Shown here in pieces: positions 4,129 through 63,901 of a stretch of DNA of 64,000 bases. The translations under genes and the position numbers were made by a program. The notes beneath the pieces were generated by a model, which ran no database searches, was not told the origin of the DNA, and worked only from the letters and a program-made list of their open reading frames with translations. Origin of the DNA: a bacterium (lineage in GTDB: Bacteria > Patescibacteriota > Andersenbacteria > UBA10190); assembly GCA_043811915.1 (NCBI GenBank), contig JBDRMS010000001.1:14499-78498 (forward strand). The letters are read 5' to 3'. Numbering within the stretch: position 1 is the stretch's first letter; each line of letters begins with the position of its first letter.

Positions 4129-5529
4129 ATGTATAATCCTGATATGGGTATTGCGGCAAAGTGTTTGCATGGAGCGCGGGTGTGTATAATCCCGCGGCCG
4201 GAGAATAATTTTAAGCCGTACGCTTTGCATCGCCGGCCACTGGCGGTGGTGGCGGGCATTTTGCTTTTAACAAAGATACTGGCACTGGGAGCGGTTGCTT
4301 TGATGCCGTTGCCGGCGGAGCTTTCGATTATTACATCGGCGCGCATAATAGAACTAACTAATAATAAGCGAGCCGAGGCGGGGTTAAATAGATTAACAGT
4401 AAACGCGGCTCTGACGGACGCGGCGCGACAAAAGGCGCAAAACATGCTGGATGAGGATTATTTTGCTCACATATCCCCTAGCGGAGTAACACCCTGGTTT
4501 TGGATGAATAAAGTAGGTTACAGCTACCAAGTGGCGGGAGAGAATCTGGCGATTGATTTTGTGGAGGCGGAAAGGGTGGTGGCGGCCTGGATGGCCAGTC
4601 CAACACACAAAGATAATATCATGCACCCTGATTATATTGAGGCAGGGGTGGCGGCATTGACGGGTGAATTTGAGGGTGGAACTTCAACAGTAGTGGTACA
4701 TATGTTTGGTTTGCCGCAGGGGGCGCAGGCCCCGACGCAAACGCCGGTGGCGAAAAAGCCGAAGGCGGCGGAGCCAACGGTGGCTCCGGCGATTACTGAA
4801 AAGATGCCGGCAGTGCCGAAAGTAACCCCGCTGAACAACGGCAGCATAATAAAGAACGAGCTGACGCTGCAATTGGAAGGAACTCCTGAAACAACGGTGA
4901 GTGTGCTAATAAACAATCAAGTGAGAGCAAAATATGTGCTTAGCGCGGTGGGCGTAGGTAAATTGACTGTGCAACTGGCGGATATACCGGATGGTGAAAT
5001 AGTCGTGAAGGCTATGGCGGAAAATACAGAAGGGGGACAGAGCGGTTTTTCGACTGTCCAGGCGTTTACCAAAGACACTCAAGGGCCCAAAATAGACAAG
5101 GAGGCGCTGATGTTTATTGCTTCGCCAGCCACGGATACACCAATCGCGCTATTGCAGGCACCAGAAGAGAGCTTTGCCTCCTTAAGCGTGATGGTCGGTG
5201 GCGAAAAAAAGGTTTACAAGCCACAGGAAGCGGTAGTGGTGCCGCTGGATGAAGTGGTGACATTTTCCCTGTCTGACGAGGTCGGCAATACCCAGGTCAT
5301 TGATAGTTTGGTTCTGGCTCCTGCTTTTTACACGGAGCGTGACCCGGTGTACGTCACCAGCACGGCCCGTTTCTCCGGTTTATCGCGACGAGTTAACCTG
5401 GTGATAATGGCAATTATGTTGATACTGCTTGCTCTGGCAATTGTTATTCGTATTAACATTCAGCATCCCCGCATGATTGCTCATGCTTCGCTGGTGGTGT
5501 TGTTGGCTCTGATTATTCTGTTCTTATAA
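4129..5529 (+). CDS. CAP/SCP (PR-1-like, YkwD-type) domain protein, membrane anchored, with extracellular C-terminal domain and C-terminal hydrophobic tail
   Basis: N-terminal TM, CAP motifs (YFAHISPSG, GENLA, WMASPTHKDNIM), Pro/Ala/Thr linker, C-terminal TM segments. Confidence 0.6.
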   Translation: MYNPDMGIAAKCLHGARVCIIPRPENNFKPYALHRRPLAVVAGILLLTKILALGAVALMPLPAELSIITSARIIELTNNKRAEAGLNRLTVNAALTDAARQKAQNMLDEDYFAHISPSGVTPWFWMNKVGYSYQVAGENLAIDFVEAERVVAAWMASPTHKDNIMHPDYIEAGVAALTGEFEGGTSTVVVHMFGLPQGAQAPTQTPVAKKPKAAEPTVAPAITEKMPAVPKVTPLNNGSIIKNELTLQLEGTPETTVSVLINNQVRAKYVLSAVGVGKLTVQLADIPDGEIVVKAMAENTEGGQSGFSTVQAFTKDTQGPKIDKEALMFIASPATDTPIALLQAPEESFASLSVMVGGEKKVYKPQEAVVVPLDEVVTFSLSDEVGNTQVIDSLVLAPAFYTERDPVYVTSTARFSGLSRRVNLVIMAIMLILLALAIVIRINIQHPRMIAHASLVVLLALIILFL

Positions 5530-5547: not shown

Positions 5548-5577
5548 TTGAGGAATTACGGCCTTTGGTGGTACAAT
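5548..5577 (+). promoter_or_regulatory. Sigma70-like promoter (TTGAGG -18 nt- TACAAT) for the histone-fold gene
   Basis: -35 at 5548-5553, 18-nt spacer, -10 at 5572-5577, about 48 nt upstream of ATG 5626; SD GAAGGAGGTGA. Confidence 0.35.
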
Positions 5578-5625
5578 CAGCCCGATGTGGATAATTACTA
5601 TGATTTCCGAAGGAGGTGAGCGAAT

Positions 5626-5814
5626 ATGAATGGTGAAGCTGGTGAAGTGTTGATTGTGGCCAGCAAAGTTCGTGGCTATCTGAAGGGGAAGGGCGTAAAG
5701 ATGTCAGGCGACTTGGTTGGTTCACTAAACACAAAGGTAAAAGCCCTTCTGGATGAGGCAGCAGGCCGTACGCGAGCTAACAAGCGCTCTACCGTTAAGC
5801 CGCAGGACGTCTAG
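5626..5814 (+). CDS. Histone-fold DNA-binding protein (bacterial histone, HBb/Bd0055-like singlet)
   Basis: 62 aa; strong SD; ...GRTRANKRSTVKPQDV resembles the histone H4/H3 C-terminal R-K-T-V..D-V motif; recalled overall similarity to Bdellovibrio Bd0055. Confidence 0.5.
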   Translation: MNGEAGEVLIVASKVRGYLKGKGVKMSGDLVGSLNTKVKALLDEAAGRTRANKRSTVKPQDV

Positions 5815-5881
5815 GAAACGATATTGTTTAACTTAAACCCACTCTTGCTTAAAGGGTGGGTTTGTGGTATAGAAAGAGGTT

Positions 5882-6556
5882 ATGAAATTGCGTATTATAT
5901 TGTCGGCCGGTTTACTAATTTTTGGGTGTATAACTTTGATACTGGTGTATTGGCCAGCCCTAGCGGGTGCTTTTAGTGAGTTGCCGAGCTATCAGCCGAA
6001 GTTACCTGTGGCGGAAGATCGGGAGGAGCCGTTTTACGACATTGAGATTGAGAAGTCTAACATCAAGACTTTGTATCCCCCGCTCACCAGCCCGATCGAT
6101 GTTGGTGAAGGTAACTGGATCAGAGTTCCGTCGATCGGCGTTAATGTGCCATTAGTGGAAAGCCTGTCGATGGATGACGAGGACGTGGTAAAGACTTTGG
6201 AGATGGGCGCGGCGTTGTATCCGAACGGCATAATGCCAGGACGGCTCGGTAATATATTTATTTCGGCTCACAGCACAGGCGAGCCGTGGAAGGGTAAGTA
6301 CCGGTTTGCCTTCATACATATAGATAAATTGCATGAGGGAAGTCTGCTGCACATTGATTACAGTAATACTCGCTACACGTATCGGGTGGTGAGTAAAGAT
6401 TTAGTGAAGCCGAATGATGAGACGCGAGTGATTTCCGGGCGGCCGGTGCCGACGGTGACTATTATGGCCTGCTGGCCGCTATGGTCGACGAGTCAAAGAA
6501 TGCTAGTGACGGGCGAGCTGACGAATATCACGAAGCTGACAAAGCAGCCTTCTTAA
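5882..6556 (+). CDS. Sortase family transpeptidase
   Basis: N-terminal TM; conserved His (ISAHS), catalytic Cys in TVTIMACWP (TLXTC-like), Arg downstream; SD AGAAAGAGG. Confidence 0.7.
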   Translation: MKLRIILSAGLLIFGCITLILVYWPALAGAFSELPSYQPKLPVAEDREEPFYDIEIEKSNIKTLYPPLTSPIDVGEGNWIRVPSIGVNVPLVESLSMDDEDVVKTLEMGAALYPNGIMPGRLGNIFISAHSTGEPWKGKYRFAFIHIDKLHEGSLLHIDYSNTRYTYRVVSKDLVKPNDETRVISGRPVPTVTIMACWPLWSTSQRMLVTGELTNITKLTKQPS

Positions 6557-9820: not shown

Positions 9821-11287
9821 TTAATATTCTTCCTTGAGAATCCACTGTTCCAGTTTTTCTTCCCATTCATAGAGGCGCAGGGGTTTGGGTTCGGCCAGTC
9901 CCCCACCCTGGGTTTTTACCCATTCACCGGAAACTTCTTCAAAGTAAGCAGCGACAGACCACTCGGGATGAATGGCGTCTTTGACGGTAAGCAAGAGGCG
10001 CTTGCTAGTGCCGGTGCCGTCGCGATAGTCAACATACACAGTATTGGGTTTATCAGTGATGGTGAGACGTTTTTGTTGAACATTGGTTTGATGAACTATG
10101 TCGGATAATTTTTTCTCAATAAAGGCGGCTAACTGGTCATCGTCCAGTACTTGCATAAGGCCGGCGACACTGCCTGACTGATCGGCCTCCGCTTCAACAT
10201 GCACCAGGTGAGTCCGTTGACCAAAATCTGACACCTCATAATTCAGGTCAGCTATGTTGCCTCGTTCGATATTGAGAGCGAAGAGGCGGGTAGAGGTTTG
10301 TCTTAATTGGCTGGCAAAGATAGCAAAATTGTTTTGGTTATCGGTGTGGATTGATAAAAGCTTACCGGAATGTCGGGCGATTTGTTGCTGGGTTGATCCG
10401 TCAAACAGCCAAAAGGTAAAGTCCTGGCTTCCTTGAGTGACAAAAAGCAACTTGTTGTCATCCAGCCATTGCAAGTACGGCAAGCCGCCACGGACGACGA
10501 GGGTGAGGGGCGGCCGATCCTGGGAAGTGATAACCAGTTTGCTGCGGCCAAGAAAAGTGGGTTCGGTCAGGGCTAGTGATTGGCCGGTTAGGCTGATGTC
10601 CATAACGCCATGGTCGGCGATATCTTTTAATTTATCCCAGTCAAGCTCGCTGAAACGAAGAGCAATACCGGGAGGCTGGGTTGATATAACATTTAGTTTT
10701 CTATCATCGCCGACAAACCAAAGATGGCTGGATGCTTTATTCCAGCGAATCCTGGTGGCGATGCCGTTTTGAACCAGTTTTTCGGCCAACAGTTTTGTGC
10801 CACTCTGTTCGGCATCATAAACCCAAAGTTCAGTCAGTCGTTCCTCGGGCTGGTCAATATTATCCAACCAATAGGCAACCTTATTGTTATCGGGGCTGAT
10901 GATGAGATCCCGGAAAGCAATGAGCGGCGTCTTGTCTGCGATAACCTGGGACTGCCCGCTATTTATCCAGGTGCGATATAGGCTATCCTCGATGTAGTGA
11001 TACCAGGATTGACCATCGGTGACGGCGTTAGTCTTGTCGGAGGGAGGCGGAGTCAGGTTTTGACAATGTTGCTGATGACAGGAAACGAGACGGCGATCCG
11101 TGGCTTGCGTCTGAAGTAATACCACGTCAAAAGCCGGGGTAGCTTGTTGTGCAATGGGTTGGATTGTTGTTTCCGGTTGATTGTCAGGATTATTGGATTT
11201 AATACGGCGAGCAACAACAAAAAGTCCGGCAACTAATGTAACGAGAAGAACGCCCAAGAAAAGCGAGCGGCCGAGGCTGGAATTCAT
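9821..11287 (-). CDS. Membrane-anchored protein with beta-propeller-like (TolB/WD40-like) repeats
   Basis: Start taken at ATG 11287 or 11302 (ORF-track start 11389 overlaps tRNA-Thr); N-terminal TM LFLGVLLVTLVAGLFVV then large extracytoplasmic domain. Confidence 0.5.
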   Translation of the reverse strand: MNSSLGRSLFLGVLLVTLVAGLFVVARRIKSNNPDNQPETTIQPIAQQATPAFDVVLLQTQATDRRLVSCHQQHCQNLTPPPSDKTNAVTDGQSWYHYIEDSLYRTWINSGQSQVIADKTPLIAFRDLIISPDNNKVAYWLDNIDQPEERLTELWVYDAEQSGTKLLAEKLVQNGIATRIRWNKASSHLWFVGDDRKLNVISTQPPGIALRFSELDWDKLKDIADHGVMDISLTGQSLALTEPTFLGRSKLVITSQDRPPLTLVVRGGLPYLQWLDDNKLLFVTQGSQDFTFWLFDGSTQQQIARHSGKLLSIHTDNQNNFAIFASQLRQTSTRLFALNIERGNIADLNYEVSDFGQRTHLVHVEAEADQSGSVAGLMQVLDDDQLAAFIEKKLSDIVHQTNVQQKRLTITDKPNTVYVDYRDGTGTSKRLLLTVKDAIHPEWSVAAYFEEVSGEWVKTQGGGLAEPKPLRLYEWEEKLEQWILKEEY

Positions 11288-11308
11288 ACTTTCATTATAC
11301 ATTTGAGC

Positions 11309-11383
11309 TGGAGCCGACGGGGAGGATTGAACTCCCGACCTAATCCTTACCATGGATTCGCTCTGCCACTGAGCTACGTCGGC
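11309..11383 (-). tRNA. tRNA-Thr (anticodon GGT), CCA encoded
   Basis: Acceptor GCCGACG/CGTCGGC, anticodon loop ATGGTAA, T-loop TTCAATC, 3' CCA. Confidence 0.85.
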
Positions 11384-11399
11384 TGGCAATGGTGATAAA

Positions 11400-13181: not shown

Positions 13182-13253
13182 GCCAGCTTAGCTCAGTGGC
13201 AGAGCAGGACTTTTGTAAAGTTCAGGCCGTCGGTTCGAATCCGACAGCTGGCT
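13182..13253 (+). tRNA. tRNA-Thr (anticodon TGT)
   Basis: Acceptor GCCAGCT/AGCTGGC, D-loop AGTGGCA, anticodon loop TTTGTAA, T-loop TTCGAAT. Confidence 0.85.
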
Positions 13254-13373
13254 CTGGAAGCAAATATATCCAGCGGTGGCCCCACGTCGCTAAAGCTATG
13301 CGGGGCAATTGCATTGGATTGATCTGAAGGCTAGTTTGTTCTTTCGTAGTTAAGATGCTAATCATTGTTTTTA

Positions 13374-13446
13374 CCAGCGGTGGCAGAACGGCTTATGCAA
13401 CGGTCTGTAAAACCGTACCAAGTAGGTTCAACTCCTACCCGCTGGA
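13374..13446 (+). tRNA. tRNA-Tyr (anticodon GTA), archaeal-like: C1:G72, 5-nt variable loop, A73
   Basis: Acceptor CCAGCGG/CCGCTGG, anticodon stem ACGGT/ACCGT with loop CTGTAAA, variable ACCAA, T-arm GTAGG-TTCAACT-CCTAC. Confidence 0.8.
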
Positions 13447-14943
13447 CCTAGATATTATTGCAGCTTCTACTTTTTCGCGTTTGGCTGAAACAGACGTAAA
13501 TATTTGCATGAGGAGGGAAATTTGGTGGTTCGACAAAGACTTGCCATCATATTCTATACCCGCAGGATAGAGAAAGTGTTCGAACCGCACCTTTTTACTT
13601 ACGTCTTTTAAATCTTCCCAACTTCTAAGAGGATTTTTTAGAGCTTCAAATGCGATTGTCACTATTTGCTCGAAGTCGTCTTGCTCTGACTGATGTTCGG
13701 ATTGTAATAACTCTAAAGCTTTAATCTTGCCTTTCAACTCTTTTACTTGAGCTATAAAGTCTTCATCAGTATACAAGTGCGGGTTTCGGCGTTTCTCTGT
13801 AAGTAAGTTAGCTTTTTCCTGCTGCAGATTGTCCAGCTCTCGACTCACGACCTTTTGGTCTTTACGATAGTCTTTCAGCCTCTCTTGCCAGCGCTCCAAT
13901 AGAATTTCTTTCATAATCGGGAACATGGATAGTTTTGGCTTAAGCTCTTTTAGCTTTCCTTTGAAGTCTGTTTCCATGTTGTCCTTCTTTGTGTTTTTAG
14001 CTAAAGGACATTTCGACGGATAACGATGGTGATAGTAGGGATGTCTTTCTCCGTTGCGGCTACGGGGGGAGGAAGCGGTTAGACGTTCACCGCAGAGTGA
14101 GCAATGGATTAAGCCGCGCAAAGGAAATAAGGGGTTAATAATGCTCCGGGTTGGCGAACTGTGAGCATTCTGCTCATTAATTGCCTGGCACCTATACCAT
14201 AAATCTTTGTTTACCAGTGGCTTGTGGTTGCCCCATATTTCCATGCCATAGGACTTCATTAAGCCCATGTAAAAAGAATTTTTGATGACGTGGTGGACAT
14301 TTTGCTCTCTGAGCTTACGTCCTTGTCTACTACGGTAGCCTCGACTGTTCATCCCATTAGCAATACGTTTGAAAGTCCAGCCATCAGCTCGTTTCTCAAA
14401 AGCCCATTTGATTATCGGAGACATCTCATTCAGAACCGCCCGGCTTCGCTTGTCTCTGCCCCGTACCATGTCATAGCCAGGTGGCGGGGTAGATACCCAA
14501 TATCCCTCACTGAATCGTGCCACCAGCCCATTACGGCACCGCTCACCGCGAATTAAGTTGTCGTATTCGGCAAACGCTCCTAACATGTTTCGCTGTAATT
14601 TACCGGCCGGAGTATCGTCCACATTCTCTGTGGCGGAACGCAGGCCAACTCCCGCCTCCTGAAGCGTCCTGATAGCGAAAAGCTGGTTCTCAAGGTTGCG
14701 GGATAGTCGGTCCACCTTGTAGACAACAATAGCCTTTATCTTGCTGTCCCCGACATATTCTAGGAGCTTTTGAAACTCCGGACGGTTTAGTGTCTTGGCT
14801 GACACCCCTTCCTCTCGAAACACTTTGGCTACGGTAAACCCTTCACGCCCAGCGTATTCCCGGCACTGTTTCTCTTGGGTGTCTAAGGATGTTCCATCTA
14901 CTTGTGACTGATCTGATACCCGGACATAAATAACACATTTCAT
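13435..14943 (-). CDS. Large serine recombinase (resolvase/invertase N-terminal domain + recombinase domain + zinc ribbon + coiled coil)
   Basis: VIYVRVSDQSQ...DGTSLDTQ catalytic-Ser N-terminus, VVYKVDRLSRN, CxxC zinc-ribbon (HCSLCGERL), C-terminal coiled-coil; 3' 12 nt overlap tRNA-Tyr. Confidence 0.85.
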   Translation of the reverse strand: MKCVIYVRVSDQSQVDGTSLDTQEKQCREYAGREGFTVAKVFREEGVSAKTLNRPEFQKLLEYVGDSKIKAIVVYKVDRLSRNLENQLFAIRTLQEAGVGLRSATENVDDTPAGKLQRNMLGAFAEYDNLIRGERCRNGLVARFSEGYWVSTPPPGYDMVRGRDKRSRAVLNEMSPIIKWAFEKRADGWTFKRIANGMNSRGYRSRQGRKLREQNVHHVIKNSFYMGLMKSYGMEIWGNHKPLVNKDLWYRCQAINEQNAHSSPTRSIINPLFPLRGLIHCSLCGERLTASSPRSRNGERHPYYHHRYPSKCPLAKNTKKDNMETDFKGKLKELKPKLSMFPIMKEILLERWQERLKDYRKDQKVVSRELDNLQQEKANLLTEKRRNPHLYTDEDFIAQVKELKGKIKALELLQSEHQSEQDDFEQIVTIAFEALKNPLRSWEDLKDVSKKVRFEHFLYPAGIEYDGKSLSNHQISLLMQIFTSVSAKREKVEAAIISRSSG

Positions 14944-14965
14944 ATTTTTATTATACTTTAATTTA

Positions 14966-16369
14966 CTAATGCGTCCTCACGTTCATCTTTTCCTCAGTTT
15001 GGCCAGTTTGGCCAGTTTTGAGGTCATGAACTGGTGTAACTGAGGAAACTGAGTCTTGGCTAAGTGTGTTATCTACCCCATATTGGACCGACAAACGCTT
15101 CACTTGTTTTGCATTCCAGGGAATAGCCGCAGAGCCATCTGATGTTTTCCAGTGAGCTGTAGCTTTTTCTCTAAGCCCTAGTGCAGTCAACATTGAGCCT
15201 ATTCTCTTGGGCGAATAGTGGTATTTTTCAGGGGTGCCATCGTTCATCTCCTCTGTAATTCTTTTCAACGATAACACACCATCAAATACTTCATTTTCTA
15301 GATGCAATAAAACTGCGACCAGTTTACCGGCTAGTGTTTCGGATCGGCGATACACTGCATCTTTCTCTAATGAGGAAATATATTCTAATGCCTTGACGTG
15401 TGACTCAGGCTTCATGGAAATGATTATTTGCATAAGAGGTCGCATAATATCACCTAATCGACGTTTAGTGGGTTTAGGTATATCTGGTAGTGGTGTATCC
15501 ATATTGGCTGCACGATAAGCTACTAGTCGCTCACGCATTGGTAGTCCATGCTCAGGTCGCACGTCGTCTTCAAATTCCCGCTCTGTATCCTGCATAATCA
15601 CAGTGACACATCTAGTGTCTAACACTTCATCAAGTTCTGTATTAGTAGCAATGACCGTCGGTCCAAATACTTGATAATACTTTGTGTCTTTAAAATCCCC
15701 ACGCTCAGGATTTAATACTCTCGGAACCTTGCCGCCTTTCTCAAAACGGTTCAAAAATAAATCAGTACAACCATTTTTTTCTACCACATCCAGGAATTTA
15801 CTTATATCAAAGAACAAACTTGCACTACATAGCTCAGCCATACGGAATATAAATGGCTCCCGGATGCTGACAATGTGCACTCCCCGATAAGCAGCGTAAA
15901 TCATGCCTTTGCCAGTTCTTGATTTTCCTCGCTCAGGCACAGCATAAAAAGCCATCTCTGGAGAATATTCAAATTCTTCTTGCCTATATGTGTGAATTGT
16001 CCATGCGGCAATTAGCAGATAAAGTGAATCAGGCAAGTCAGAAATATTGCGATGATACTCAACTACATCATCAAAAAGCTGCTCGTTAGTTTTTACTCCC
16101 AACTCTAGAAATTTACTGTATTCCTTTAGGACCTCCTCGTAGCGGGGTAGTTTCCATGGTAACTGGTCTATAGAAGGCGGATAGTGAATATTGTCACCAG
16201 CCCGATGGCTTTTTCTAACAATCAAATCCTGACCACTCTTAAGTAGGTAGTGTGGTTGATTTTTGTACTCGACAATATCTACTAGACCAGGAAGTACAGC
16301 CTTATATGACTTTTTATTTTGGCTAGAATGTTCTTTATCAACTAGCACTGCCTCTATGTCTTTATCCAT
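14966..16369 (-). CDS. P-loop NTPase, phage/plasmid replication-associated (primase-helicase/VapE-like), putative
   Basis: 467 aa; Walker A-like AVPERGKS; GGAGGA SD; translationally coupled to the upstream gene (8-nt overlap). Confidence 0.45.
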   Translation of the reverse strand: MDKDIEAVLVDKEHSSQNKKSYKAVLPGLVDIVEYKNQPHYLLKSGQDLIVRKSHRAGDNIHYPPSIDQLPWKLPRYEEVLKEYSKFLELGVKTNEQLFDDVVEYHRNISDLPDSLYLLIAAWTIHTYRQEEFEYSPEMAFYAVPERGKSRTGKGMIYAAYRGVHIVSIREPFIFRMAELCSASLFFDISKFLDVVEKNGCTDLFLNRFEKGGKVPRVLNPERGDFKDTKYYQVFGPTVIATNTELDEVLDTRCVTVIMQDTEREFEDDVRPEHGLPMRERLVAYRAANMDTPLPDIPKPTKRRLGDIMRPLMQIIISMKPESHVKALEYISSLEKDAVYRRSETLAGKLVAVLLHLENEVFDGVLSLKRITEEMNDGTPEKYHYSPKRIGSMLTALGLREKATAHWKTSDGSAAIPWNAKQVKRLSVQYGVDNTLSQDSVSSVTPVHDLKTGQTGQTEEKMNVRTH

Positions 16370-16835
16370 ATATTTCCTCCAATTTTCTTATTAGTCTTTT
16401 GCACCTATAGCGCTTGTATTTCTCAGCTTCCAACATCCGCTCATATAAGCCCCTACCAAAGCCGGATAAGTGCTTTGACTTAGTTAGAATTTTTTGAGTA
16501 TTGCTTGACCACTTCTTTGATAGCCAGTAGTCATTTGCAATGTGTTTTTGGGCTGCCTGAATCAGTGCCCTAGGCATTGCGTCAGGAGCTGGCCAACAGA
16601 CACGGGCTTTGTAGTCTTTGGTAATTCCTACAGTGATATCCGGGTGTATTTGCATAGCGATTGACACAGCACTCCAGTTGTTAGTTTTCTCGCAGCGTTT
16701 CTCAATAAGACCGGTTATGTACCTACACATACAACGATAATTGTCTTGTTTGTGTTTGGTTGCCCTGGTATTATTGTTTGTATAAGAGTGATTCCTAGTC
16801 GGGGTCACTTTTTTTGTTATTGAACTATTGCTCAT
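16362..16835 (-). CDS. Hypothetical basic, Cys-containing protein
   Basis: 157 aa, Lys/Arg-rich, CMCRY...C; overlaps downstream gene by 8 nt. Confidence 0.35.
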   Translation of the reverse strand: MSNSSITKKVTPTRNHSYTNNNTRATKHKQDNYRCMCRYITGLIEKRCEKTNNWSAVSIAMQIHPDITVGITKDYKARVCWPAPDAMPRALIQAAQKHIANDYWLSKKWSSNTQKILTKSKHLSGFGRGLYERMLEAEKYKRYRCKRLIRKLEEIYG

Positions 16836-16980
16836 GTGGTGTTTTCTCTCTTTCTTTCCAAGTAGATATCAATTACCAAATCAGCCAACTCATAGCACTG
16901 ACTAAGTAGGCTCGACAAGTCTTGGTCACTTATTTGTTGCTCCTCGCTGGGAAGCATAGCCCGGGCTTTTTCCAGAGTTA

Positions 16981-17235
16981 TCATAGACCCCGCTCTCTCA
17001 AACGGCTAAAAACTATGTCCTTGCATGTCCTTATGGCATCGCTGAAGTCCTTCGCGTTTACAATTGCTCTGCGAGTGTAGTAATCATTAGCAAGTGCCTT
17101 GCATGGGATGGCTTGGAATATAAAAACCACATCATGCCCATCCTTTTCAGTACCAAGAAAAGACTCGCTGTGCTTGGAATACAAAAAACTAGACTCGTAG
17201 AGATCCCTAGTTTTGTGGGTAGTAGTAATTTCCAT
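16981..17235 (-). CDS. Hypothetical protein
   Basis: 84-aa ORF in same orientation as neighbours; no recognisable motif. Confidence 0.3.
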   Translation of the reverse strand: MEITTTHKTRDLYESSFLYSKHSESFLGTEKDGHDVVFIFQAIPCKALANDYYTRRAIVNAKDFSDAIRTCKDIVFSRLRERGL

Positions 17236-17313
17236 ACCAAAAGTATCCTTAAGTTAAGGATTGCTTGATTATGCCTAGCTGTGAACGACACTAACTGATT
17301 TTACTTAGTGTTC

Positions 17314-18024
17314 CTATGACCGTTTGTGTTTTTTACGTGTACGATTGCGAATTTTTGAAACAATATCTGGATCGCACGCTTCTTGTGGGAATTCTTCTCT
17401 GGCAACTCGTGCAATTTCCTCATTAGTCACTTCTGGGTTCTCTCGGTCTATTTTTAATATATATGCGTTACGTTTAGCTCGAGGACTCTTCCTTGTCTTT
17501 TTCCAGTGCTTTGGTGGCATGAATCGTTGCCAGCCCATTATCAGCTTAAGATGTACTGAAATACAGTCTTTAATCTCATTACTTGAGGCGTCAGCTGCGA
17601 CTTGGATTTGGATCGGGAAGTTTTCGAGGTGAGATTTTAAACGATAATCATCGTCTTTCATATGTTGCGCGGCGATTTCATTTGCATATTCCATATAAGG
17701 AAATTCAACAATACACGCATCAAATATTGAATAATCCTTAACGTGACCATCCTGTATGAATTGAATTACTGGGCCATTAATCGGTAGTCCGTGCTCTTTA
17801 GCAAGTTCATAGATAATCTTCTCAATCTTATTGGTTATGCCCTTTTGTTCGATTATGAGTTTTTTAATGCCATTGACCCTGTCTATAAAGTCTGGATCGT
17901 TCATTAATTCCTCAAAATAGAGGCGTAGGTGTTCTTTCCTTTTTGATTCTCGAAAAACTGATTCCATAATCTCAATCTCAATAATCTTTACTTTACTATC
18001 ACCCCCTATTCGGGTGGTATGCAA
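17314..18024 (-). CDS. Hypothetical protein with basic C-terminal HTH-like region
   Basis: 236 aa; C-terminus KRNAYILKIDRENPEVTNEEIARVAREEF...KIRNRTRKKHKRS. Confidence 0.35.
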   Translation of the reverse strand: MHTTRIGGDSKVKIIEIEIMESVFRESKRKEHLRLYFEELMNDPDFIDRVNGIKKLIIEQKGITNKIEKIIYELAKEHGLPINGPVIQFIQDGHVKDYSIFDACIVEFPYMEYANEIAAQHMKDDDYRLKSHLENFPIQIQVAADASSNEIKDCISVHLKLIMGWQRFMPPKHWKKTRKSPRAKRNAYILKIDRENPEVTNEEIARVAREEFPQEACDPDIVSKIRNRTRKKHKRS

Positions 18025-18112
18025 ATAAATTGGACAAATTAGCTTTAATGGGGTACAACGTAGGCATAATTCACTAGCCTAAACTACGCCTTGGCGCAGC
18101 ATGGCATTAAAT

Positions 18113-18153
18113 CCTCAAGGATACTGAACCCATCGTTCAGCACTTCCTTGAGG
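18113..18153. repeat. Nested inverted repeat (outer CCTCAAGGA/TCCTTGAGG, inner CTGAAC-ccatc-GTTCAG)
   Basis: Perfect 9-bp outer stem and 6-bp inner stem read directly in the non-coding gap 18025-18248. Confidence 0.5.
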
Positions 18154-18248
18154 TCATATAGGGAAACCTATGTGGGTAATCGAAAGATTATCGCTGGCGG
18201 TGGGCTTTGTGTTTGCTGGCAGCCCGTAACTACCTTAATGCTCTAACT

Positions 18249-40479: not shown

Positions 40480-41079
40480 TTAAGGTGAGGGTGAGGGCTC
40501 AGAAAATACACAAAATTCGCCGCCGGGGGGAGGAGGAATGATCGTAGGAATGACAGAGGGGTTTGGGCTGGGTAGAACGCAAACAGTTGGTTCAGGAACA
40601 CCACCACCAGTGGTCCCCCAGCTTGTTGAATCGGACAAGAGCACACAGGGACCAAGGGGCCCGGAACAGGCAGCGCTTTGCTTATACTCCCCGGATTGAT
40701 CTATACAAATATAGTCTCCGCTACTGGGTAGCCGCGCTGAGGCGCAGAACTTATCCCAGAGTCCATATACCCAGAAAAGTGAAGACATCTCATTTAAGTC
40801 GCTGGCGATAACTTGAGCTTCTTTCAGGACACGCTGGCCACATAATGAAAATCCTCCACTGCCAAAGCAATAGCCGATGTCGGAATATCCTCCGGAATTT
40901 TTCCAGGCAACTTCGGCCAATGAGCGTATCTGACCCAGGTCTGATTTAACACGAGCATCCTTGGCTTTTTCGCGAGCGTTACCCAGGGCGACCAGCACCA
41001 AAGCAGCCAGAACGCCGATGATGGCGACGACGACGAGCAGTTCGATCAGGGTGAAGCCAGTGGGTTTTTTGTATCTCAT
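40480..41079 (-). CDS. Type IV pilin/pseudopilin-like protein (Cys- and Pro-rich C-terminus)
   Basis: Prepilin leader ...KPTG|[18 protein letters not shown] with E+5; ATG 41079. Confidence 0.7.
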
Positions 41080-41097
41080 TCCATGATTATACAACAC

Positions 41098-57860: not shown

Positions 57861-58763
57861 TTAAATGATGATGTTTAATATCGCTTGAGGTAATTCGGGG
57901 ATGAGAATGAAAAGAATAGCCACCCCGGCCAGGAAGGGGCCGAAGGGAACGGGAGTTTTCATGTTGGCGCGGCCAGTGAGGAGGAGAAAGGCACCGACTG
58001 CCCCGCCGGAAATAAAAGCAGGGAAGAGCAGCGTGATAGTACCGATTGGTCCAAACAACGCGCCTAGAGGAAGCATGAGTTTGACGTCGCCCAGGCCGAT
58101 GCCGCGGCCGCGGGTGATAAGCCAGAGAAACGCCAGGACCCCGGAGCCGATGGTCATACCCAGCAGGGCAGTAATTAGGCTATAAGCTGTGGGCTGTAGG
58201 CTGTAGTTTATAAAGAGAGATAACACTACAACCACGGCCAGGATGATGATAAAAATATCTGGCAGGAGCATAGTGCGCAGATCAATGACGAAAAGGATAA
58301 TCAGTAAGGCAATGCTGATAAGGCTTAAAACTGCGATAGCGAAAGCGGCTGATGTTGCAGGCAGAGGAGTGAACAAAATTAAAGTGAAGACACCTATGGC
58401 CAGTTCTAAGAGCGGGTATTGCAAGGATATTTGGTTATGGCAAGTGCGGCAGCGGCCACGCAGGAAGATGAAAGACAAAATAGGAATAAGCTCCGGCCAG
58501 GCTAATTTTTTGTGACAGAAGGGACAATGTGAGCGGCCGCGCAAAATGCCGGCCTCCTCCCAGCCTTCGCCAGAGGCTTCGGCGGGCAAGGCAACCCTTG
58601 GTGTTTTTCCGTTAACACCAAGGGTTTTCCCGGCGCCTGTTTTCCCGGCCGACGACGACGCTTGACTGGCTTGCTTTACACTTTTGTTGCGCAATATGAC
58701 GACATTCAAAAAGCTGCCCAGGGCAGCACCAAAAATAAAAGCAAAAATTGCGCTTAGGGGCAT
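57861..58763 (-). CDS. pilD: Type IV prepilin peptidase (A24 family)
   Basis: ATG 58763 (ORF-track start is TTG); N-terminal CxxC...CxxC zinc region, polytopic peptidase core with conserved Asp residues. Confidence 0.8.
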   Translation of the reverse strand: MPLSAIFAFIFGAALGSFLNVVILRNKSVKQASQASSSAGKTGAGKTLGVNGKTPRVALPAEASGEGWEEAGILRGRSHCPFCHKKLAWPELIPILSFIFLRGRCRTCHNQISLQYPLLELAIGVFTLILFTPLPATSAAFAIAVLSLISIALLIILFVIDLRTMLLPDIFIIILAVVVVLSLFINYSLQPTAYSLITALLGMTIGSGVLAFLWLITRGRGIGLGDVKLMLPLGALFGPIGTITLLFPAFISGGAVGAFLLLTGRANMKTPVPFGPFLAGVAILFILIPELPQAILNIII

Positions 58764-59185
58764 ATGAAAGGAGCTTCTTCCGGACAAGGACCGGAAGAAA
58801 TTTTGAACTCAACGCTAGCGTCGGCGCAGTAATATTTGTTGGGATTGCTTTTAAAGGGCGCGCTGACGCAGTACTGCTGTACTTCGCTGTCACGAATAAT
58901 TATATTTTCACCGGCTATACCGACTTCCTGAATGTCACTGGTTAATATATTCAGGCTGGTCTGGATGCTGGCGTCACTGGACCAGTTAAGAAAGCTGCCG
59001 TTTTGACCGTTGTACACTATTTCGGCCAGCCAGCGCATTTGCCGAACGTCGTTGCGGACGCGGGCGTCGTCGGCTTTGTCCCGACCGTTTTTAGCGGCGG
59101 CAAAAACGAGCGAGGTGAGGATGCCGATGATAGCTATAACAACTAGAAGTTCTATTAGGGTAAACCCGTTAGAAACGATCTTCAT
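58754..59185 (-). CDS. Type IV pilin
   Basis: Leader MKIVSNG|[16 protein letters not shown] with E+5; C-terminal Cys pair. Confidence 0.75.
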   Translation of the reverse strand: MKIVSNGFTLIELLVVIAIIGILTSLVFAAAKNGRDKADDARVRNDVRQMRWLAEIVYNGQNGSFLNWSSDASIQTSLNILTSDIQEVGIAGENIIIRDSEVQQYCVSAPFKSNPNKYYCADASVEFKISSGPCPEEAPFICP

Positions 59186-59284
59186 ATCTAATGCTGATTA
59201 TCATATCACACAAGATATATATTGTTATTAAAACAAAACGCTCCCTGCTAAAACAGGTGAGCGTTTTACATCCCGGATTAAACC

Positions 59285-59746
59285 TTATGGCCCACAAACT
59301 CCAGCTGCACATGTGCCAGCCGAACTTTCTTTAGTAACGCCTGTACTGTCAACACAGATTTCATTTCCGTTTAACATTGTGGCCATGACACAGAATGCTG
59401 AAGTAGTGCTGGTGGCGGTAATGGCGGCACTTGCATTAGCGTCAATTATGTCGGTTCGCAACGTGGAGACTGAAGAAGAAGTGGCTGCGTCACCACAGTC
59501 AAGTGTTGTTGGAGCTGAGAAGCAATCCTGAACGCTAGGGTCAGTGCCTGTTGCTCCATAACTGGAACCACCGGTGTCGTAGATAATCTCGGCCAAGGTG
59601 CGTAGTTGCCCTATGTCGGCTTTGACACGCGCGTCATTGGCTTTGTCACGGGCATTGCCCAAAGCAACAAGGACCAGGGCGGCGAGGATGCCGATAATGG
59701 CGATAACAACCAGCAACTCAATTAGGGTAAAACCTTTACTCTTCAT
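59285..59746 (-). CDS. Type IV pilin
   Basis: Leader MKSKG|[18 protein letters not shown]; strong SD GGAGGTGA; C-terminal Cys pairs. Confidence 0.75.
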   Translation of the reverse strand: MKSKGFTLIELLVVIAIIGILAALVLVALGNARDKANDARVKADIGQLRTLAEIIYDTGGSSYGATGTDPSVQDCFSAPTTLDCGDAATSSSVSTLRTDIIDANASAAITATSTTSAFCVMATMLNGNEICVDSTGVTKESSAGTCAAGVCGP

Positions 59747-59833
59747 ATATCCTCACCTCCTCTCACAATGTAAATATGTCTATTTTTCCACATACGACCT
59801 GTAAATTAGTGTAACACAGATAAAAGAAGAGTG

Positions 59834-60892
59834 TTATGGCGGCGAGGTAAAGTAGGGAGCGGCAGCTTCTCTGGAAATCAGGCCGGAGTCGATTAGTGAT
59901 TGCAGACTGGCATCGAGCGTTTGCATGCCAAGTTCCGAGCTGGTTTGAATGATACCAAGAATCTGATGAATATTATCTTCGCGAATGGTGGTGCGAATAG
60001 CGGGACTGGCCAGCATGATCTCGACCGCGGGCACCCGACCACTCTCCTTTTGAGGCAGCAGACGCTGGGAAATAACGCCGGACAGGGCTGCAGACAGTTG
60101 AGAGCGAATTTGTGACTGTTGACCGGCCGGGAACGAGTCAATAATGCGTTCCACGGTTTGGGCAGCATCGTTAGTGTGCAGGGTCGAAAAAACCAGGTGC
60201 CCGGTTTCGGCTAGGGTCATAGCGGCAGACATGGATTCAGGCTCGCGCAGCTCGCCAATTAAAATGATGTTGGGGTCCTGGCGCAAAGTGGATTTTATGG
60301 CTTCAAGAAAAGAAGGAGCGTCGCGTCCGATCTCCCGCTGATCAATAATAGACATGCTGTCTTTGAACTGATATTCAATCGGGTCTTCGATAGTAATGAT
60401 GTGTTCGCGGCGATATTGATTGATGTGATTTATCAGGGCAGCCAGAGTGGTTGATTTACCGTGACCGGCCGGGCCGACAGCTAAAACAAATCCCTGCTTT
60501 AGTTCAGCAAATTGCAAAATGTGGGCGGGAAGATTGAGCTCCTCGATGCTGCGAATATTGCTGGGTATCAGCCGCAGGGCGGCGGACAGTCCGCCGGTGC
60601 GGAAAAAAACATTGATTCGAAAGCGAGCACCATCGGGCAGAGAGTAAGAAAAGTCTGTTTGCTGCTTTTGAGATAATTGCCGATCGGCTCGCTCGTTGGC
60701 GCCAATCAGCTTTTTGATCATGTCCTGGGTTTCTACCTCCGTAAGTAGCTGTTCGCCGACGGGCCCGAGCTTTCCGTCGATGCGGAAAAACGGCGGCCGG
60801 TCAGGCGAAATGTGCACATCAGAAGCACCAGCTTCTTTAGCTTCCCGCAACAGGTCGTCTATCCGGCGATGAGGGGCGGCTTCCTTTGGCAT
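59834..60892 (-). CDS. pilT: Type IV pilus retraction ATPase PilT
   Basis: Walker A VGPAGHGKSTT, Asp box, Walker B, His box; 352 aa (PilT/PilU size). Confidence 0.85.
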   Translation of the reverse strand: MPKEAAPHRRIDDLLREAKEAGASDVHISPDRPPFFRIDGKLGPVGEQLLTEVETQDMIKKLIGANERADRQLSQKQQTDFSYSLPDGARFRINVFFRTGGLSAALRLIPSNIRSIEELNLPAHILQFAELKQGFVLAVGPAGHGKSTTLAALINHINQYRREHIITIEDPIEYQFKDSMSIIDQREIGRDAPSFLEAIKSTLRQDPNIILIGELREPESMSAAMTLAETGHLVFSTLHTNDAAQTVERIIDSFPAGQQSQIRSQLSAALSGVISQRLLPQKESGRVPAVEIMLASPAIRTTIREDNIHQILGIIQTSSELGMQTLDASLQSLIDSGLISREAAAPYFTSPP

Positions 60893-61293
60893 TATTTCCT
60901 GTTTTTGGCGGCAAGTACTTTGGCTATCTTGTCGACCACTTCGGTAGGAGTGTAATGAGCTTTAATTATGTAATCGTCGGCGCCTAGTTGTATGCCACGC
61001 TCTACATCCGGTTTTTGGCCAAGATTAGTGAGAAGGATGACGGGGATGTTTTTAGTGCGATCGCTGGAGCGCAAATTCTCAAGGATTTCAAAACCGTCGC
61101 GTTTGGGCAAAACAATGTCTAATAGAACAAGGTCTGGTAGAGGATCCTGCTCCAGACGCTGGCCGGCAGTCTCGCCATTATCGATGACCTCAACGGCATA
61201 ACCAAGATTGGTTAACTTTGTCTCATACATGCCGGAGATGAAAGAGTCGTCTTCGACCAAAAGGATGGAGATATTCTTTTTGTCTTCTGTCAT
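60892..61293 (-). CDS. Stand-alone response-regulator receiver domain (CheY-like)
   Basis: ILLVEDD, phospho-acceptor Asp in LVLLDIVLP, conserved T and K (ILLTNLG...IIKAHYTP). Confidence 0.8.
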   Translation of the reverse strand: MTEDKKNISILLVEDDSFISGMYETKLTNLGYAVEVIDNGETAGQRLEQDPLPDLVLLDIVLPKRDGFEILENLRSSDRTKNIPVILLTNLGQKPDVERGIQLGADDYIIKAHYTPTEVVDKIAKVLAAKNRK

Positions 61294-61315
61294 GTGTTTA
61301 TATTAGCATATATTG

Positions 61316-63037
61316 TCAGGAGGTGGCACTGATTACGTCCCGATAGCTAACCAGGCCAGCCAGGGCTTTGAGTAGGCCGTCCTGGCGCAGAGAAAGGTGG
61401 CCTTTGCGGCGAATAAGAGGTACGAGACTGGCACAGTCGTCTTTGTTGGCAATGGCGGTGCGCAGTTCCTGGAAAACAGGGACTACTTCGAAGAGGCCAA
61501 TTTGCCCTTGAGTTTTGCGCTCGTGGCAGGCGGGACAGCCGGCACTGCTGGAAAAGGAAAGTTTACGGGGCAGGCGAAGTTCATCGCGAGTGGCTTTGGA
61601 GATATTTTTTAGTTCGGCCTGAATTTCCAGCTTTAACTCGCGGGGAATAGGCTCGGGGAGAGCACATGCCTGGCATAGTTTAGGTACCAGGCGTTGGGCA
61701 ACCAGCAAACGCAGGCTGGAGGCAACAAGATGGGAGCCAAGGTCAAGATTAATCAAGTGTGAAATAGTGCTAATAGCATCGGAAGCGTGGCAGGTGGAAA
61801 GAATAAGGTGGTTGGCCGCGGCCTTAACGACCAGCCCCGCAGTGGCACTGTCAAAAAGTTTACTAACCATGATGATGTCGATATCTTGTTGTAATAAGTT
61901 TTGCAGAACCACGGTTGCAGTTAACCCCTGTGCTGACTGGAGTTGAGTTTGATTAATGCCTGATATCTCGTATTCGACAGGGTCTTCAAGAGTGGCGATG
62001 TTGACGTCGGACTTGTTGAGAAGAGACAGAGCGGTAAATAAGAAGGTTGCTTTACCGGAGCCGGCCGGACCGGCAACAATAATCAAGCCATCGCGAGCTG
62101 ATAAATGTTTTTTGACCAGATCCAGTTGTGTATTGGAAAGACCCAGTTCGCTTAGAGTAGGGGCTGGTTTGGAGATATCGATAAGGCGCAGGGTGACTCT
62201 TTCCCCGGCTACGGTGGGCATAAAAGAGGCGTGGATACTGTATGATTGACCGTCGATGGGTAGAACAAAGCGTCCTTGTTGAGGCAGGTTAGATTGACTG
62301 ACGCGGACGTTGGACAAAATTTTAATGCGGGAAGTAATAGCAGGCAGCGACTCCATAGGCAGCAACAAGGTAGTGGAGAGTTGATGATCAATACGGTAGC
62401 GAACACGAAATTCTTTGTTGCCGGGCTCAATGTGAACGTCGGAGGCTAGGCCCTCTATGGCCAAACGGATGATGACGGCCACAATTTTGTTGATAGGGGC
62501 GCTGACCAGGACATCGTGAAGCTTGTCTTTGTCTCTGGGTACGTTTTCTGCCCGAAGTACTTCCTGCCCAAAGTCGCGTAAGGTTTGTTTGATGTTGTTT
62601 TGGGATGGCGCTCGCAGTACTGCCTCAATATTTTCCGGTGAAGCGCAGTATAGTTCTGGAATAAGAGAGCGCCTGCTGGCGATAAAGCGTACGGCTTCCA
62701 GGACCTGATAATCATCGGGTGAGGCCATAGCGACTTGTAATTTGCCGTTTTGTTGTCCAAAAGCAACAAACTGGTAAGTAGTGGCCGCACGCTGCGAAAT
62801 ACCACTCATGGCTGTATCGTCGATCTCAACTACTTTAAGGTCAACATAGGGCACACCGAGAAAAGCGGCTTTGAGCTGGGCTAATGGTTCAGGGAAAACA
62901 AGCTTTTCGGCGCGGATTACCTCTTCGAGAGTTTTTTTCTGTTCAATGGCGAGGCGCTGGACGTGTTCAAGCTGGGCGGGCTTGAGTAAGCCATGCTCTA
63001 GCAACAATTCTTCGAAGTTTGGTTTTTGCCGGGACAT
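61316..63037 (-). CDS. pilB: Type IV pilus assembly ATPase PilB (GspE family)
   Basis: N-terminal T2SE_N domain, Walker A GPAGSGKAT, tetracysteine (CQAC...CPAC); 573 aa. Confidence 0.85.
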   Translation of the reverse strand: MSRQKPNFEELLLEHGLLKPAQLEHVQRLAIEQKKTLEEVIRAEKLVFPEPLAQLKAAFLGVPYVDLKVVEIDDTAMSGISQRAATTYQFVAFGQQNGKLQVAMASPDDYQVLEAVRFIASRRSLIPELYCASPENIEAVLRAPSQNNIKQTLRDFGQEVLRAENVPRDKDKLHDVLVSAPINKIVAVIIRLAIEGLASDVHIEPGNKEFRVRYRIDHQLSTTLLLPMESLPAITSRIKILSNVRVSQSNLPQQGRFVLPIDGQSYSIHASFMPTVAGERVTLRLIDISKPAPTLSELGLSNTQLDLVKKHLSARDGLIIVAGPAGSGKATFLFTALSLLNKSDVNIATLEDPVEYEISGINQTQLQSAQGLTATVVLQNLLQQDIDIIMVSKLFDSATAGLVVKAAANHLILSTCHASDAISTISHLINLDLGSHLVASSLRLLVAQRLVPKLCQACALPEPIPRELKLEIQAELKNISKATRDELRLPRKLSFSSSAGCPACHERKTQGQIGLFEVVPVFQELRTAIANKDDCASLVPLIRRKGHLSLRQDGLLKALAGLVSYRDVISATS

Positions 63038-63052
63038 ATATTAGCTATTATA

Positions 63053-63901
63053 CTACAGCACGGATAATTTACTGCGAGCTAAACCGACAGCGACGGCTAA
63101 CAGCGGACCCAAATTAACTAACTTCCCTTCCAACCCTTCCTGGAAGGACAAAGATTGCCAGGGGTTGCTGATGGATGGCTGGTGTCCAAATTGTTTTATC
63201 CAGCGGTTTTTAAATGAGGCCAGGTTTATCCCCCCGCCAACCAGTATGGTTTTGGTTACGCGTAAGCCAGCAGCAATATGTTCAACTTCCTGAAAAAGGG
63301 AGTCAATAGATTGAGAGCCACCTGGAATAGTGCTTGAAGAGCAGGGAAAACCATGTTTGATGAGATGCAATGTTGTTTCCTGCCCGCCAATATTGCAAAA
63401 AATGGTGTTTTGTCCGGTATTTATCGTGTGTGTGCGCATAAGCGAAAAAATTTCTGCTTCGGTACCGACCAACTTGAGACCGAGACGTTCGGCCAGGCGG
63501 CGATATTGGGCAATGACTGTCTTGGCGGTGGCGACCAGATAAACACCATCCGGCTGTTTGTACCAGGCGAGCTCGACGTCATCAAGGGACAAAGGTACTA
63601 CCTCGCGGGCTTTGAATTTTACGGCGGCAGCCAGTTCATCCTCCGGCAAATCGGGCAAAGTAAGTTTGACACAAAAAATTGCCTTGTTAGGTAAAGATAT
63701 AATCAGATCATCAGCCGAAGTCTGGGCTGCTTCCAGCATGCGGGAAATGATGGCGCCGGTTTTGATTGATCGGGTCCGTGGAGCGTAGGCATAAGTGGAA
63801 AGCTCGTGTCTTTTACCACGATCAAGAAGCTCGACGAGCTTAATGTTAGTAGTTCCAATATCGAGCCCCAGATAGGCTCGAGGAATTCCAAGGAGAGCCA
63901 T
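63053..63901 (-). CDS. pilM: Type IV pilus assembly protein PilM (actin-like ATPase fold)
   Basis: LGLDIGTTNIKLVEL N-terminal phosphate-1 motif; AAGGAG SD; 282 aa. Confidence 0.8.
   Translation of the reverse strand: MALLGIPRAYLGLDIGTTNIKLVELLDRGKRHELSTYAYAPRTRSIKTGAIISRMLEAAQTSADDLIISLPNKAIFCVKLTLPDLPEDELAAAVKFKAREVVPLSLDDVELAWYKQPDGVYLVATAKTVIAQYRRLAERLGLKLVGTEAEIFSLMRTHTINTGQNTIFCNIGGQETTLHLIKHGFPCSSSTIPGGSQSIDSLFQEVEHIAAGLRVTKTILVGGGINLASFKNRWIKQFGHQPSISNPWQSLSFQEGLEGKLVNLGPLLAVAVGLARSKLSVL

Follow-up and report, generated by a model that had tools for sequence, protein, structure and literature searches.

A probable face-to-face histone at a conserved chromosomal position in the Andersenbacteria

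The recognition of histones in bacteria dates from 2023-2025 only, and two lineages, Bdellovibrio and Leptospira, are so far the only ones in which they have been studied by experiment. Here, we describe a short gene carried on a stretch of 64,000 nucleotides (nt) of contig JBDRMS010000001.1 (assembly GCA_043811915.1), hereafter the window, whose positions are used throughout. The organism belongs to the Andersenbacteria, which are placed in the Parcubacteria group of the Patescibacteria (NCBI taxonomy). Judged by its sequence, its predicted fold and its relatives, it is likely that the gene encodes a face-to-face (FtF) bacterial histone with a truncated third helix, an orthologue-level relative of the protein HLp of Leptospira. 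The gene and the features around it are the following.

4129-5529, upstream of the histone gene: CAP-domain protein of 466 amino acids, membrane-anchored (PF00188, E=5e-15)
5548-5553, + strand: -35-like hexamer TTGAGG, found by promoter scan; TTGAG or TTGTG stands at the same place in orthologous loci
5569-5577, + strand: extended -10 element TGGTACAAT; TGnTAnAnT in nearly all of 24 Andersenbacteria loci
5578-5594, + strand: leader motif CAGCCCG-ATGTGGATAA, directly after the -10 box; probable transcription start at G5584 or A5585
5585-5629, + strand: candidate mini-ORF (short open reading frame) MWIITMISEGGERI, reading through the Shine-Dalgarno sequence, with a TGA stop that overlaps the histone ATG
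5610-5619, + strand: Shine-Dalgarno (SD) sequence AAGGAGGTGA, 6 nt before the ATG, with GGAGGTGA at 5612-5619
5626-5814, + strand: histone coding sequence, ATG start, 62 amino acids, isoelectric point 10.1, net charge +6
5831-5868, + strand: terminator-like hairpin with 16 pairs, a 5-nt loop and no long U run
5882-6556, downstream of the histone gene: sortase (PF04203, E=7e-17)

An earlier note, made from the letters of this DNA, had proposed an open reading frame of 62 amino acids here, and translation of 5626-5814 on the + strand returns its quoted sequence exactly; the promoter-like site begins at the left coordinate it gave, 5548. The note had also set the gene between a CAP-domain protein and a sortase, which the Pfam matches PF00188 and PF04203 bear out, with intergenic gaps of 96 nt on the CAP side and 67 nt on the sortase side. 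The encoded protein holds 12 lysine and arginine residues against 6 aspartate and glutamate residues. In a protein collection clustered at 90%, 336 homologues were found at E<=1e-3, mostly 58-62 amino acids long. A profile made from 57 homologues reaches 1706 clusters (50% identity) at E<=1e-3 and 264 at E<=1e-10, and a scan of one genome per species gave 536 histone-encoding loci. Compared with its closest orthologue (locus L001, 87% amino acid identity), the window gene shows 29.5 synonymous and 9.5 non-synonymous differences, corresponding to a ratio of non-synonymous to synonymous rates (dN/dS) of about 0.05 with the synonymous sites close to saturation. With orthologues further away, synonymous change has reached saturation, and the proportion of non-synonymous differences (pN) is still 0.1-0.24. 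By these comparisons the open reading frame is a real gene under strong purifying selection.

The fold of the protein was addressed by sequence and by structure. In a phmmer search against the PDB, the best match was Leptospira perolatii HLp (9QT0, E=8.7e-15); the alignment spans 55 residues, 31 of them identical, and runs without gaps, also through helix alpha2. HBb, also known as Bd0055 (8CMP, 8FVX), followed at E=0.02-0.06, and the archaeal histone HTkC (9F2C) at E=0.024. An AlphaFold2 monomer model, built on an alignment of 57 sequences, has a mean predicted local distance difference test (pLDDT) of 88.3 and contains the helices alpha1 (12-20), alpha2 (30-51) and alpha3 (59-61) with loops L1 and L2, which is the short-long-short arrangement of the histone fold, and Foldseek agrees. 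Against the PDB, Foldseek ranked HLp first, with a template-modelling (TM) score of 0.80-0.88, a root-mean-square deviation of 1.6 Å and 55% identity. HTkC, HBb (fourth to sixth match) and then eukaryotic H4 and other histone-fold chains came next, and nearly all of the 50 PDB matches listed are histones or histone-fold proteins. The model therefore is a histone fold whose best structural matches are bacterial, archaeal and eukaryotic H4 histones, as the earlier note had anticipated in calling the protein a histone-fold singlet. Of the two outcomes that the note had named as speaking against this, neither appeared: AlphaFold2 and Foldseek returned no other fold, and the PDB sequence search no unrelated family.

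Two details of that reading need correction. A motif of the form R-(K/R)-T-V..D-V, assigned to the alpha3 region, had been reported at the C-terminus; the motif present there reads K-R-S-T-V-K-P-Q-D-V, with R-S-T-V in place of R-(K/R)-T-V. According to the model and the literature, it does not lie in alpha3 but forms the R-x-T-V motif of loop L2 (R54-S55-T56-V57) together with the RD clamp (R54-D61). R54, T56 and D61 are invariant in the 57 homologues. The resemblance to Bd0055 holds for the fold, but is distant in sequence (E=0.02-0.06), the close relative being HLp (E=9e-15).

Prokaryotic singlets with an alpha3 of only 3-4 residues, named "alpha3 histones", are split into several categories and also have an alpha2 shorter than that of nucleosomal histones (Schwab et al. 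2024). With an alpha3 of 3 residues (59-61) and an alpha2 of 22 residues in the AlphaFold2 model, the protein fits this truncated class. Among its categories, FtF histones form a tetramer through the conserved R48 and N52, whereas "bacterial dimer" histones such as HBb are without both. HLp is a stable tetramer, in which R49, S52 and N53 of one chain stand against R55, T61 and F63 of another; its RD clamp is R55-D62, and DNA of about 60 bp wraps the tetramer (PMC12701072). Residue numbers in that paper are one higher than those of the query, as checked on seven hydrophobic-core residues of the alignment. The HLp tetramer residues R49, N53 and R55 accordingly correspond to R48, N52 and R54 of the window protein, and the clamp R55-D62 to R54-D61. 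R48, N52, R54 and D61 are invariant in the 57-homologue alignment and in 80 of 80 genomic loci. HLp also touches the DNA backbone through A13, S14, K15, K17, K21, T27, G29, T56 and T57 (PMC12701072). Six of these nine contacts are identical in the query (A13, S14, K15, K21, G29, T57), two are conservatively replaced (K17 by R16, T56 by S55) and one is changed (T27 to M26).

Because R48, N52, R54 and the RD clamp are kept and HLp is far closer than HBb (E=8.7e-15 against 0.02-0.06), we place the protein in the bacterial FtF subfamily; its nearest relatives outside the candidate phyla radiation (CPR) also lie in the FtF-bearing Planctomycetota. It falls outside two other families of the histone fold. 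The DUF1931 pseudodimers (PF09123) differ from the single fold of 62 amino acids, which has no Pfam match at E<=10, and the archaeal nucleosomal histones (HMf/HTk; PF00808, CBFD_NFYB_HMF) have an alpha3 of about 10 residues against 3, again with no Pfam match. Two observations count against the FtF placement. The first is that no curated profile of Pfam or NCBIfam detects a histone here: no Pfam histone profile, DUF1931 and the PF00125 type included, matches even at E<=10, no NCBIfam match is usable (E<=1), and the best PHROGs match reaches only E=0.36. Since the curated profiles are blind to this protein, it was assigned to its family by pairwise and structural similarity together with the definitions in the literature, and the profile search against PF00125 and DUF1931 that the earlier note had suggested is uninformative rather than negative. 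The second is that only three of the six HLp interface positions are identical, with S52 replaced by A51, T61 by Q60 and F63 by V62; Q60 is near-invariant within the query's family.

The same three substitutions would suit a protein that behaves like HBb/Bd0055, forming stable dimers by which DNA is bent, or coated end-on, instead of a tetramer that wraps it. Fold and length are shared with HBb, which is the fourth to sixth structural match. However, the sequence similarity to HBb is marginal beside that to HLp, and R48 and N52, which are absent in the dimer class and are S and D in HBb, are invariant here. A dimer of this kind is thus, in our judgement, unlikely, and an FtF histone remains the preferred reading of the gene. 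As observations on the wider family, tandem doublets are found in it, with two FtF-like folds per chain of 120-140 amino acids (P0121, P0123, P0125), and two members (P0112, P0120) carry lysine-rich N-terminal tails (MAKKKAAKKKATKKKGAKK...) that recall eukaryotic histone or H1-like tails.

The distribution of the gene gives a second line of evidence. The closest 25 loci come from metagenome-assembled genomes labelled Candidatus Andersenbacteria or bearing placeholder CPR labels. Next in similarity (53-64% identity) come relatives mostly from the Planctomycetota (Phycisphaerae, Sedimentisphaerales, Pirellulales), a phylum named in the literature as a carrier of FtF histones, and HLp is itself 62-66% identical to these Planctomycetota relatives. 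In 24 Andersenbacteria loci, the histone gene occupies one shared slot, rplL - rplJ - ... - yceG (mltG-like) - NTP-transferase - CAP protein - histone - sortase, after which Ham1, rpmG and tyrS often follow; L001, L002, L006 and L033 lie on short or rearranged contigs, where the gene order is partial or differs on one side. Across the 24 loci, the flanking proteins are 27-69% identical to those of the window and the histone 58-87%, a level similar to that of ribosomal protein L7/L12. In loci outside the CPR, the histone has none of these neighbours beside it. A neighbour-joining tree rooted on HBb unites the window and the 24 syntenic Andersenbacteria loci in one clade of 25 tips, whereas rooting on a partial HTkC sequence leaves the CPR clade unresolved, with one non-syntenic sequence (L015) outside; with only 58 residues, the tree is weak evidence either way. 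Each Andersenbacteria locus has one histone copy, and one Planctomycetota contig (JBEKGR010000002.1, Sedimentisphaerales) bears two paralogues about 7 kb apart (L035 and L039).

The fixed slot and the clade pattern argue for vertical inheritance within the lineage, and not for a mobile element or a surface-protein module. These two origins may nevertheless be considered in turn. In the one, the protein would keep the histone fold for a role outside chromatin, as a specific regulator or an adaptor tied to the flanking CAP and sortase surface genes. The position between those two genes is conserved in 24 genomes, and the literature cautions that some prokaryotic histone-fold proteins need not be global organisers. 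The synteny, however, reaches unrelated housekeeping genes (rplL, rplJ, yceG, NTP-transferase) and therefore looks like the gene order of the lineage and not like a functional module; close Planctomycetota relatives have none of these neighbours, the histone gene has a promoter and a terminator of its own, and the DNA-contact residues of HLp are conserved. We hold such a role to be very improbable. In the other, the histone would be borne by a mobile element or phage, or the reading frame would be due to chance or contamination. The alpha3 family does include a "phage histone" category in the literature, and an island with a serine recombinase lies 8 kb away. Against this, the slot beside ribosomal-protein genes is fixed across the lineage, the PHROGs match (E=0.36) is not meaningful, dN/dS is about 0.05, and the recombinase island (13.4-18 kb) excludes the histone gene. 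This origin is scarcely credible, and the sequences indicate a histone inherited vertically within the Andersenbacteria.

The signals around the gene form a compact unit. The promoter-like site at 5548-5577 is sigma-70-like, TTGAGG-18-TACAAT, with a score of 9/12 and a TG extension, and its 18-nt spacer is kept in orthologous loci, in which AAGGAGGTG before the ATG is also invariant. The near-consensus SD and the promoter that the earlier note had read from the letters are both found and conserved across 24 orthologous loci. In the 64-kb window, the pattern [AG]GGAGG-N4-10-ATG before a reading frame of at least 50 codons occurs at five sites, and the only true gene starts among them are those of the histone and of the major pilin. 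For most other genes of the window, the ribosome-binding signals appear to be weaker or absent. Downstream, a consensus terminator scan of the window found nothing after the histone gene, and it was folding that revealed the hairpin: its 74-nt fold has a free energy of -20.7 kcal/mol (z = -3.5), and none of 200 shuffles folded as well. When orthologous loci were folded, each showed a strong hairpin just 3' of the stop codon, differing in sequence and followed by a U run in most. The promoter boxes, the SD and the downstream hairpin being kept in 24 loci, the sequences agree with the independent transcription unit that had been proposed. The extended -10 promoter, the perfect SD and the terminator hairpin of its own suggest that the gene is a monocistronic unit with strong constitutive expression.

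How would such a protein act? Following the homology to HLp, we infer tetramer formation, DNA wrapping, abundance and association with the nucleoid. Two chains would pair by the histone-fold handshake around a hydrophobic core of V15, L19, L34, V38, L41 and V62. Two such dimers would then meet face to face via R48, N52 and R54, yielding a rigid tetramer with positive charge all around it. This assembly would grip the DNA backbone without sequence preference, through the N-terminus of alpha1 (A12-S13-K14, R16, K20) and the L1 and L2 loops (G28, S55, T56). In wrapping or bridging about 60 bp, it would compact the small chromosome, and the protein may serve as an abundant nucleoid organiser. Indirectly, a nucleoid-associated role is supported by the isoelectric point of 10.1, the HLp-like DNA contacts, the perfect SD and the conserved promoter and terminator.

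The leader of the gene carries a further conserved element. Directly downstream of the -10 box, the consensus (C)AGGyCG-ATGTGGAWAA is common to the histone leaders, and of this GATGTGGA is invariant in 17 aligned motif-bearing orthologous leaders. The exact 10-mer ATGTGGAWAA occurs three times in the window: in the histone leader, inside a membrane-protein reading frame, and in the leader of the major type IV pilin. When one mismatch is allowed it is not enriched (13 found against 8.8 expected), so that the exact matches alone are informative. The motif region of the pilin leader in the window lies at 59743-59800 on the - strand. The closest metagenomic relatives of this pilin (PF07963, N_methyl) carry the same CAGGTCGT-ATGTGGATAA leader. 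The survey of the motif covered the histone leaders L001-L079 and the pilin leaders L081, L082, L083, L087 and L089.

From the ATG of this motif a candidate mini-ORF of 13-17 codons can be read, which starts with MW(I/K), passes through the SD (GGA GGT, read as Gly-Gly) and ends on or a few nt past the main ATG. Among 21 histone leaders that bear the motif, 18 keep it open and in frame, at ATG-to-SD distances of 27, 30 or 36 nt. The mini-ORF is also present in the pilin leader of the window and in its relatives L081, L082, L087 and L089 (33 and 24 nt; translated by hand), and in only one of seven control SD-start sites; in the pilin leader L083, CTG replaces the ATG of the mini-ORF. The distance from the -10 box to this ATG is 7 nt in histone leaders and 13-14 nt in pilin leaders, so the histone mini-ORF would be leaderless or nearly so. 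RNAalifold found no pairs in the aligned histone leaders. An upstream reading frame of 9 codons from 5600 is the 3' part of the longer mini-ORF from 5585. It is possible, on evidence that is suggestive only, that the leader is a translationally coupled mini-ORF; the alternative is that two structural genes with presumably very high expression have an operator or 5'-end element in common.

The pilin in question belongs to a type IV pilus cluster at 57861-63901 on the - strand. There, two adjacent pilins with an N-terminal methylation motif (58754-59185 and 59285-59746) stand with two T2SSE ATPases, one PilT-like (59834-60892) and one PilB-like with an MshEN domain (61316-63037), and with a response-regulator-like and a PilM-like reading frame, as judged from N-terminal sequence alone. 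A third pilin-like gene lies at 40480-41097 (- strand). More distant metagenomic pilin relatives (L095, L097, L102, L103, L105, L106, L110) have in common a conserved GC-rich hairpin, GAGAGGGTGGCGATATGGCCATGCCACTCTCTC, about 40-80 nt 5' of the ATG in leaders that are otherwise AT-rich and without an SD; this hairpin may be a leader RNA element.

Leptospira is reported to be without HU. A tblastn search for HU and IHF, with HupA and IhfA of E. coli and HBsu of B. subtilis as queries, gave no credible match in the window (best E=0.47) or in 811 kb of homologous loci; as every one of these loci spans one and the same small region, the result says nothing about the whole genome. A bolder reading joins two proposals. 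In its first part, the fixed and vertically inherited FtF histone would be a core chromatin gene of the Andersenbacteria, their principal chromatin protein, which might replace HU, as is reported of Leptospira. In its second part, a hitherto undescribed leader would be shared with the major type IV pilin, its MW... mini-ORF, leaderless or nearly so, being translated from ATGTGGAWAA through the SD to end on the main start codon. We regard the two together as a rather doubtful proposition. If true, it would mean a histone-based nucleoid in ultra-small episymbiotic bacteria, and translational coupling as a means to very high output.

Elsewhere in the window, the region 13182-18192 resembles an integrated element. 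Two tRNA genes (13182-13253 and 13374-13446) adjoin a large serine recombinase (13435-14943, - strand) with Resolvase, Recombinase and Zn-ribbon domains, from which minus-strand reading frames without a Pfam match run to about 18.0 kb, and a LOOT RNA (RF03000, 78 bits) at 18076-18192 (+ strand) marks the far edge of the putative element. Another tRNA gene (11312-11383, - strand) lies across the 5' end of an open reading frame of 522 amino acids in its longest reading (9821-11389, - strand). This overlap places the true start of the conserved protein, which has no Pfam match, downstream of the start of the longest reading. Orthologues of the 522-amino-acid frame keep its position in Andersenbacteria loci at 32-35% identity.

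With respect to what is published, the finding is only moderately new, since the family, its structure and its mechanism have been described and Andersenbacteria entries have been catalogued. Supplementary Table 1 of Hocher et al. 2023 (PMC10627809) lists two Andersenbacteria singlets, one histone of a "Patescibacteria group" bacterium and one of Candidatus Peribacter riflensis. The earlier note had called a histone in a small-genome bacterium notable; the bacterial histone is confirmed, but with these entries already listed it is less so. None of the main texts searched links histones with Patescibacteria or Andersenbacteria or treats CPR nucleoid proteins, and the supplements of Schwab et al. 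2024 that were searched list no Patescibacteria or Andersenbacteria histones. The present sequences add an assignment to the FtF type, a synteny that holds across the lineage, strong purifying selection and expression signals that are conserved. The locus would extend the FtF-type histone to the CPR, at a fixed position and with signals of strong expression, and with it histone-based chromatin to reduced-genome episymbionts. It leaves the picture of such proteins unchanged and offers a compact, well-conserved set of sequences for biochemistry.

Among known systems, the Andersenbacteria and Patescibacteria singlets (OGY33174.1, PIT98311.1, UBA6539; PMC10627809) belong to the same orthologous group as the query. 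Locus L007, with a histone that shares 72% identity with the query and occupies the same slot, comes from the genome that yielded OGY33174.1; the entries of Hocher et al. 2023 are catalogued only, and subfamily, synteny and expression signals are absent from the main texts searched. The DUF1931 pseudodimers (Aquifex Aq_328, 1R4V; Thermus 1WWI) have the histone fold in common, but consist of two fused folds and are without the DNA-binding residues; "DUF1931 domain-containing protein" is also the automatic label under which HLp is deposited in the PDB. The archaeal FtF histone HTkC of Thermococcus kodakarensis (9F2C), the third-best structural match (TM 0.76-0.81), has equivalents of R48 and R54 and is an FtF tetramer according to the literature, whereas its identity is 29% and the N52 position holds E. 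HBb/Bd0055 (8CMP, 8FVX, 9EZZ, 9F0E) is likewise a singlet with a short alpha2 and alpha3, S-K at the N-terminus of alpha1, the R-x-T-V motif and the RD clamp. It differs in its identity of about 30%, in S and D at the positions of R48 and N52, and in being dimeric and bending DNA.

HLp (9QT0, 9QT1, 9QT2; Nat Commun 2025, PMC12701072; L. interrogans orthologue LA_2458) is the closest of these. It is alike in length class, fold and truncated alpha3, and both proteins are single domains with the RD clamp, the R/N/R tetramer residues and most of the DNA contacts. The tetramer and the wrapping of DNA are experimental for HLp and deduced from homology for the query. HLp belongs to the Spirochaetota and the query to the Patescibacteria; the L1 loop reads K-G-V-K-M-S-G-D in the query and K-G-F-M-T-S-G-D in HLp, and the C-terminus K-P-Q-D-V against R-P-T-D-F (T61 and F63 becoming Q60 and V62). 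Finally, hlp of Leptospira adjoins smc and map, whereas the Andersenbacteria gene stands between a CAP protein and a sortase.

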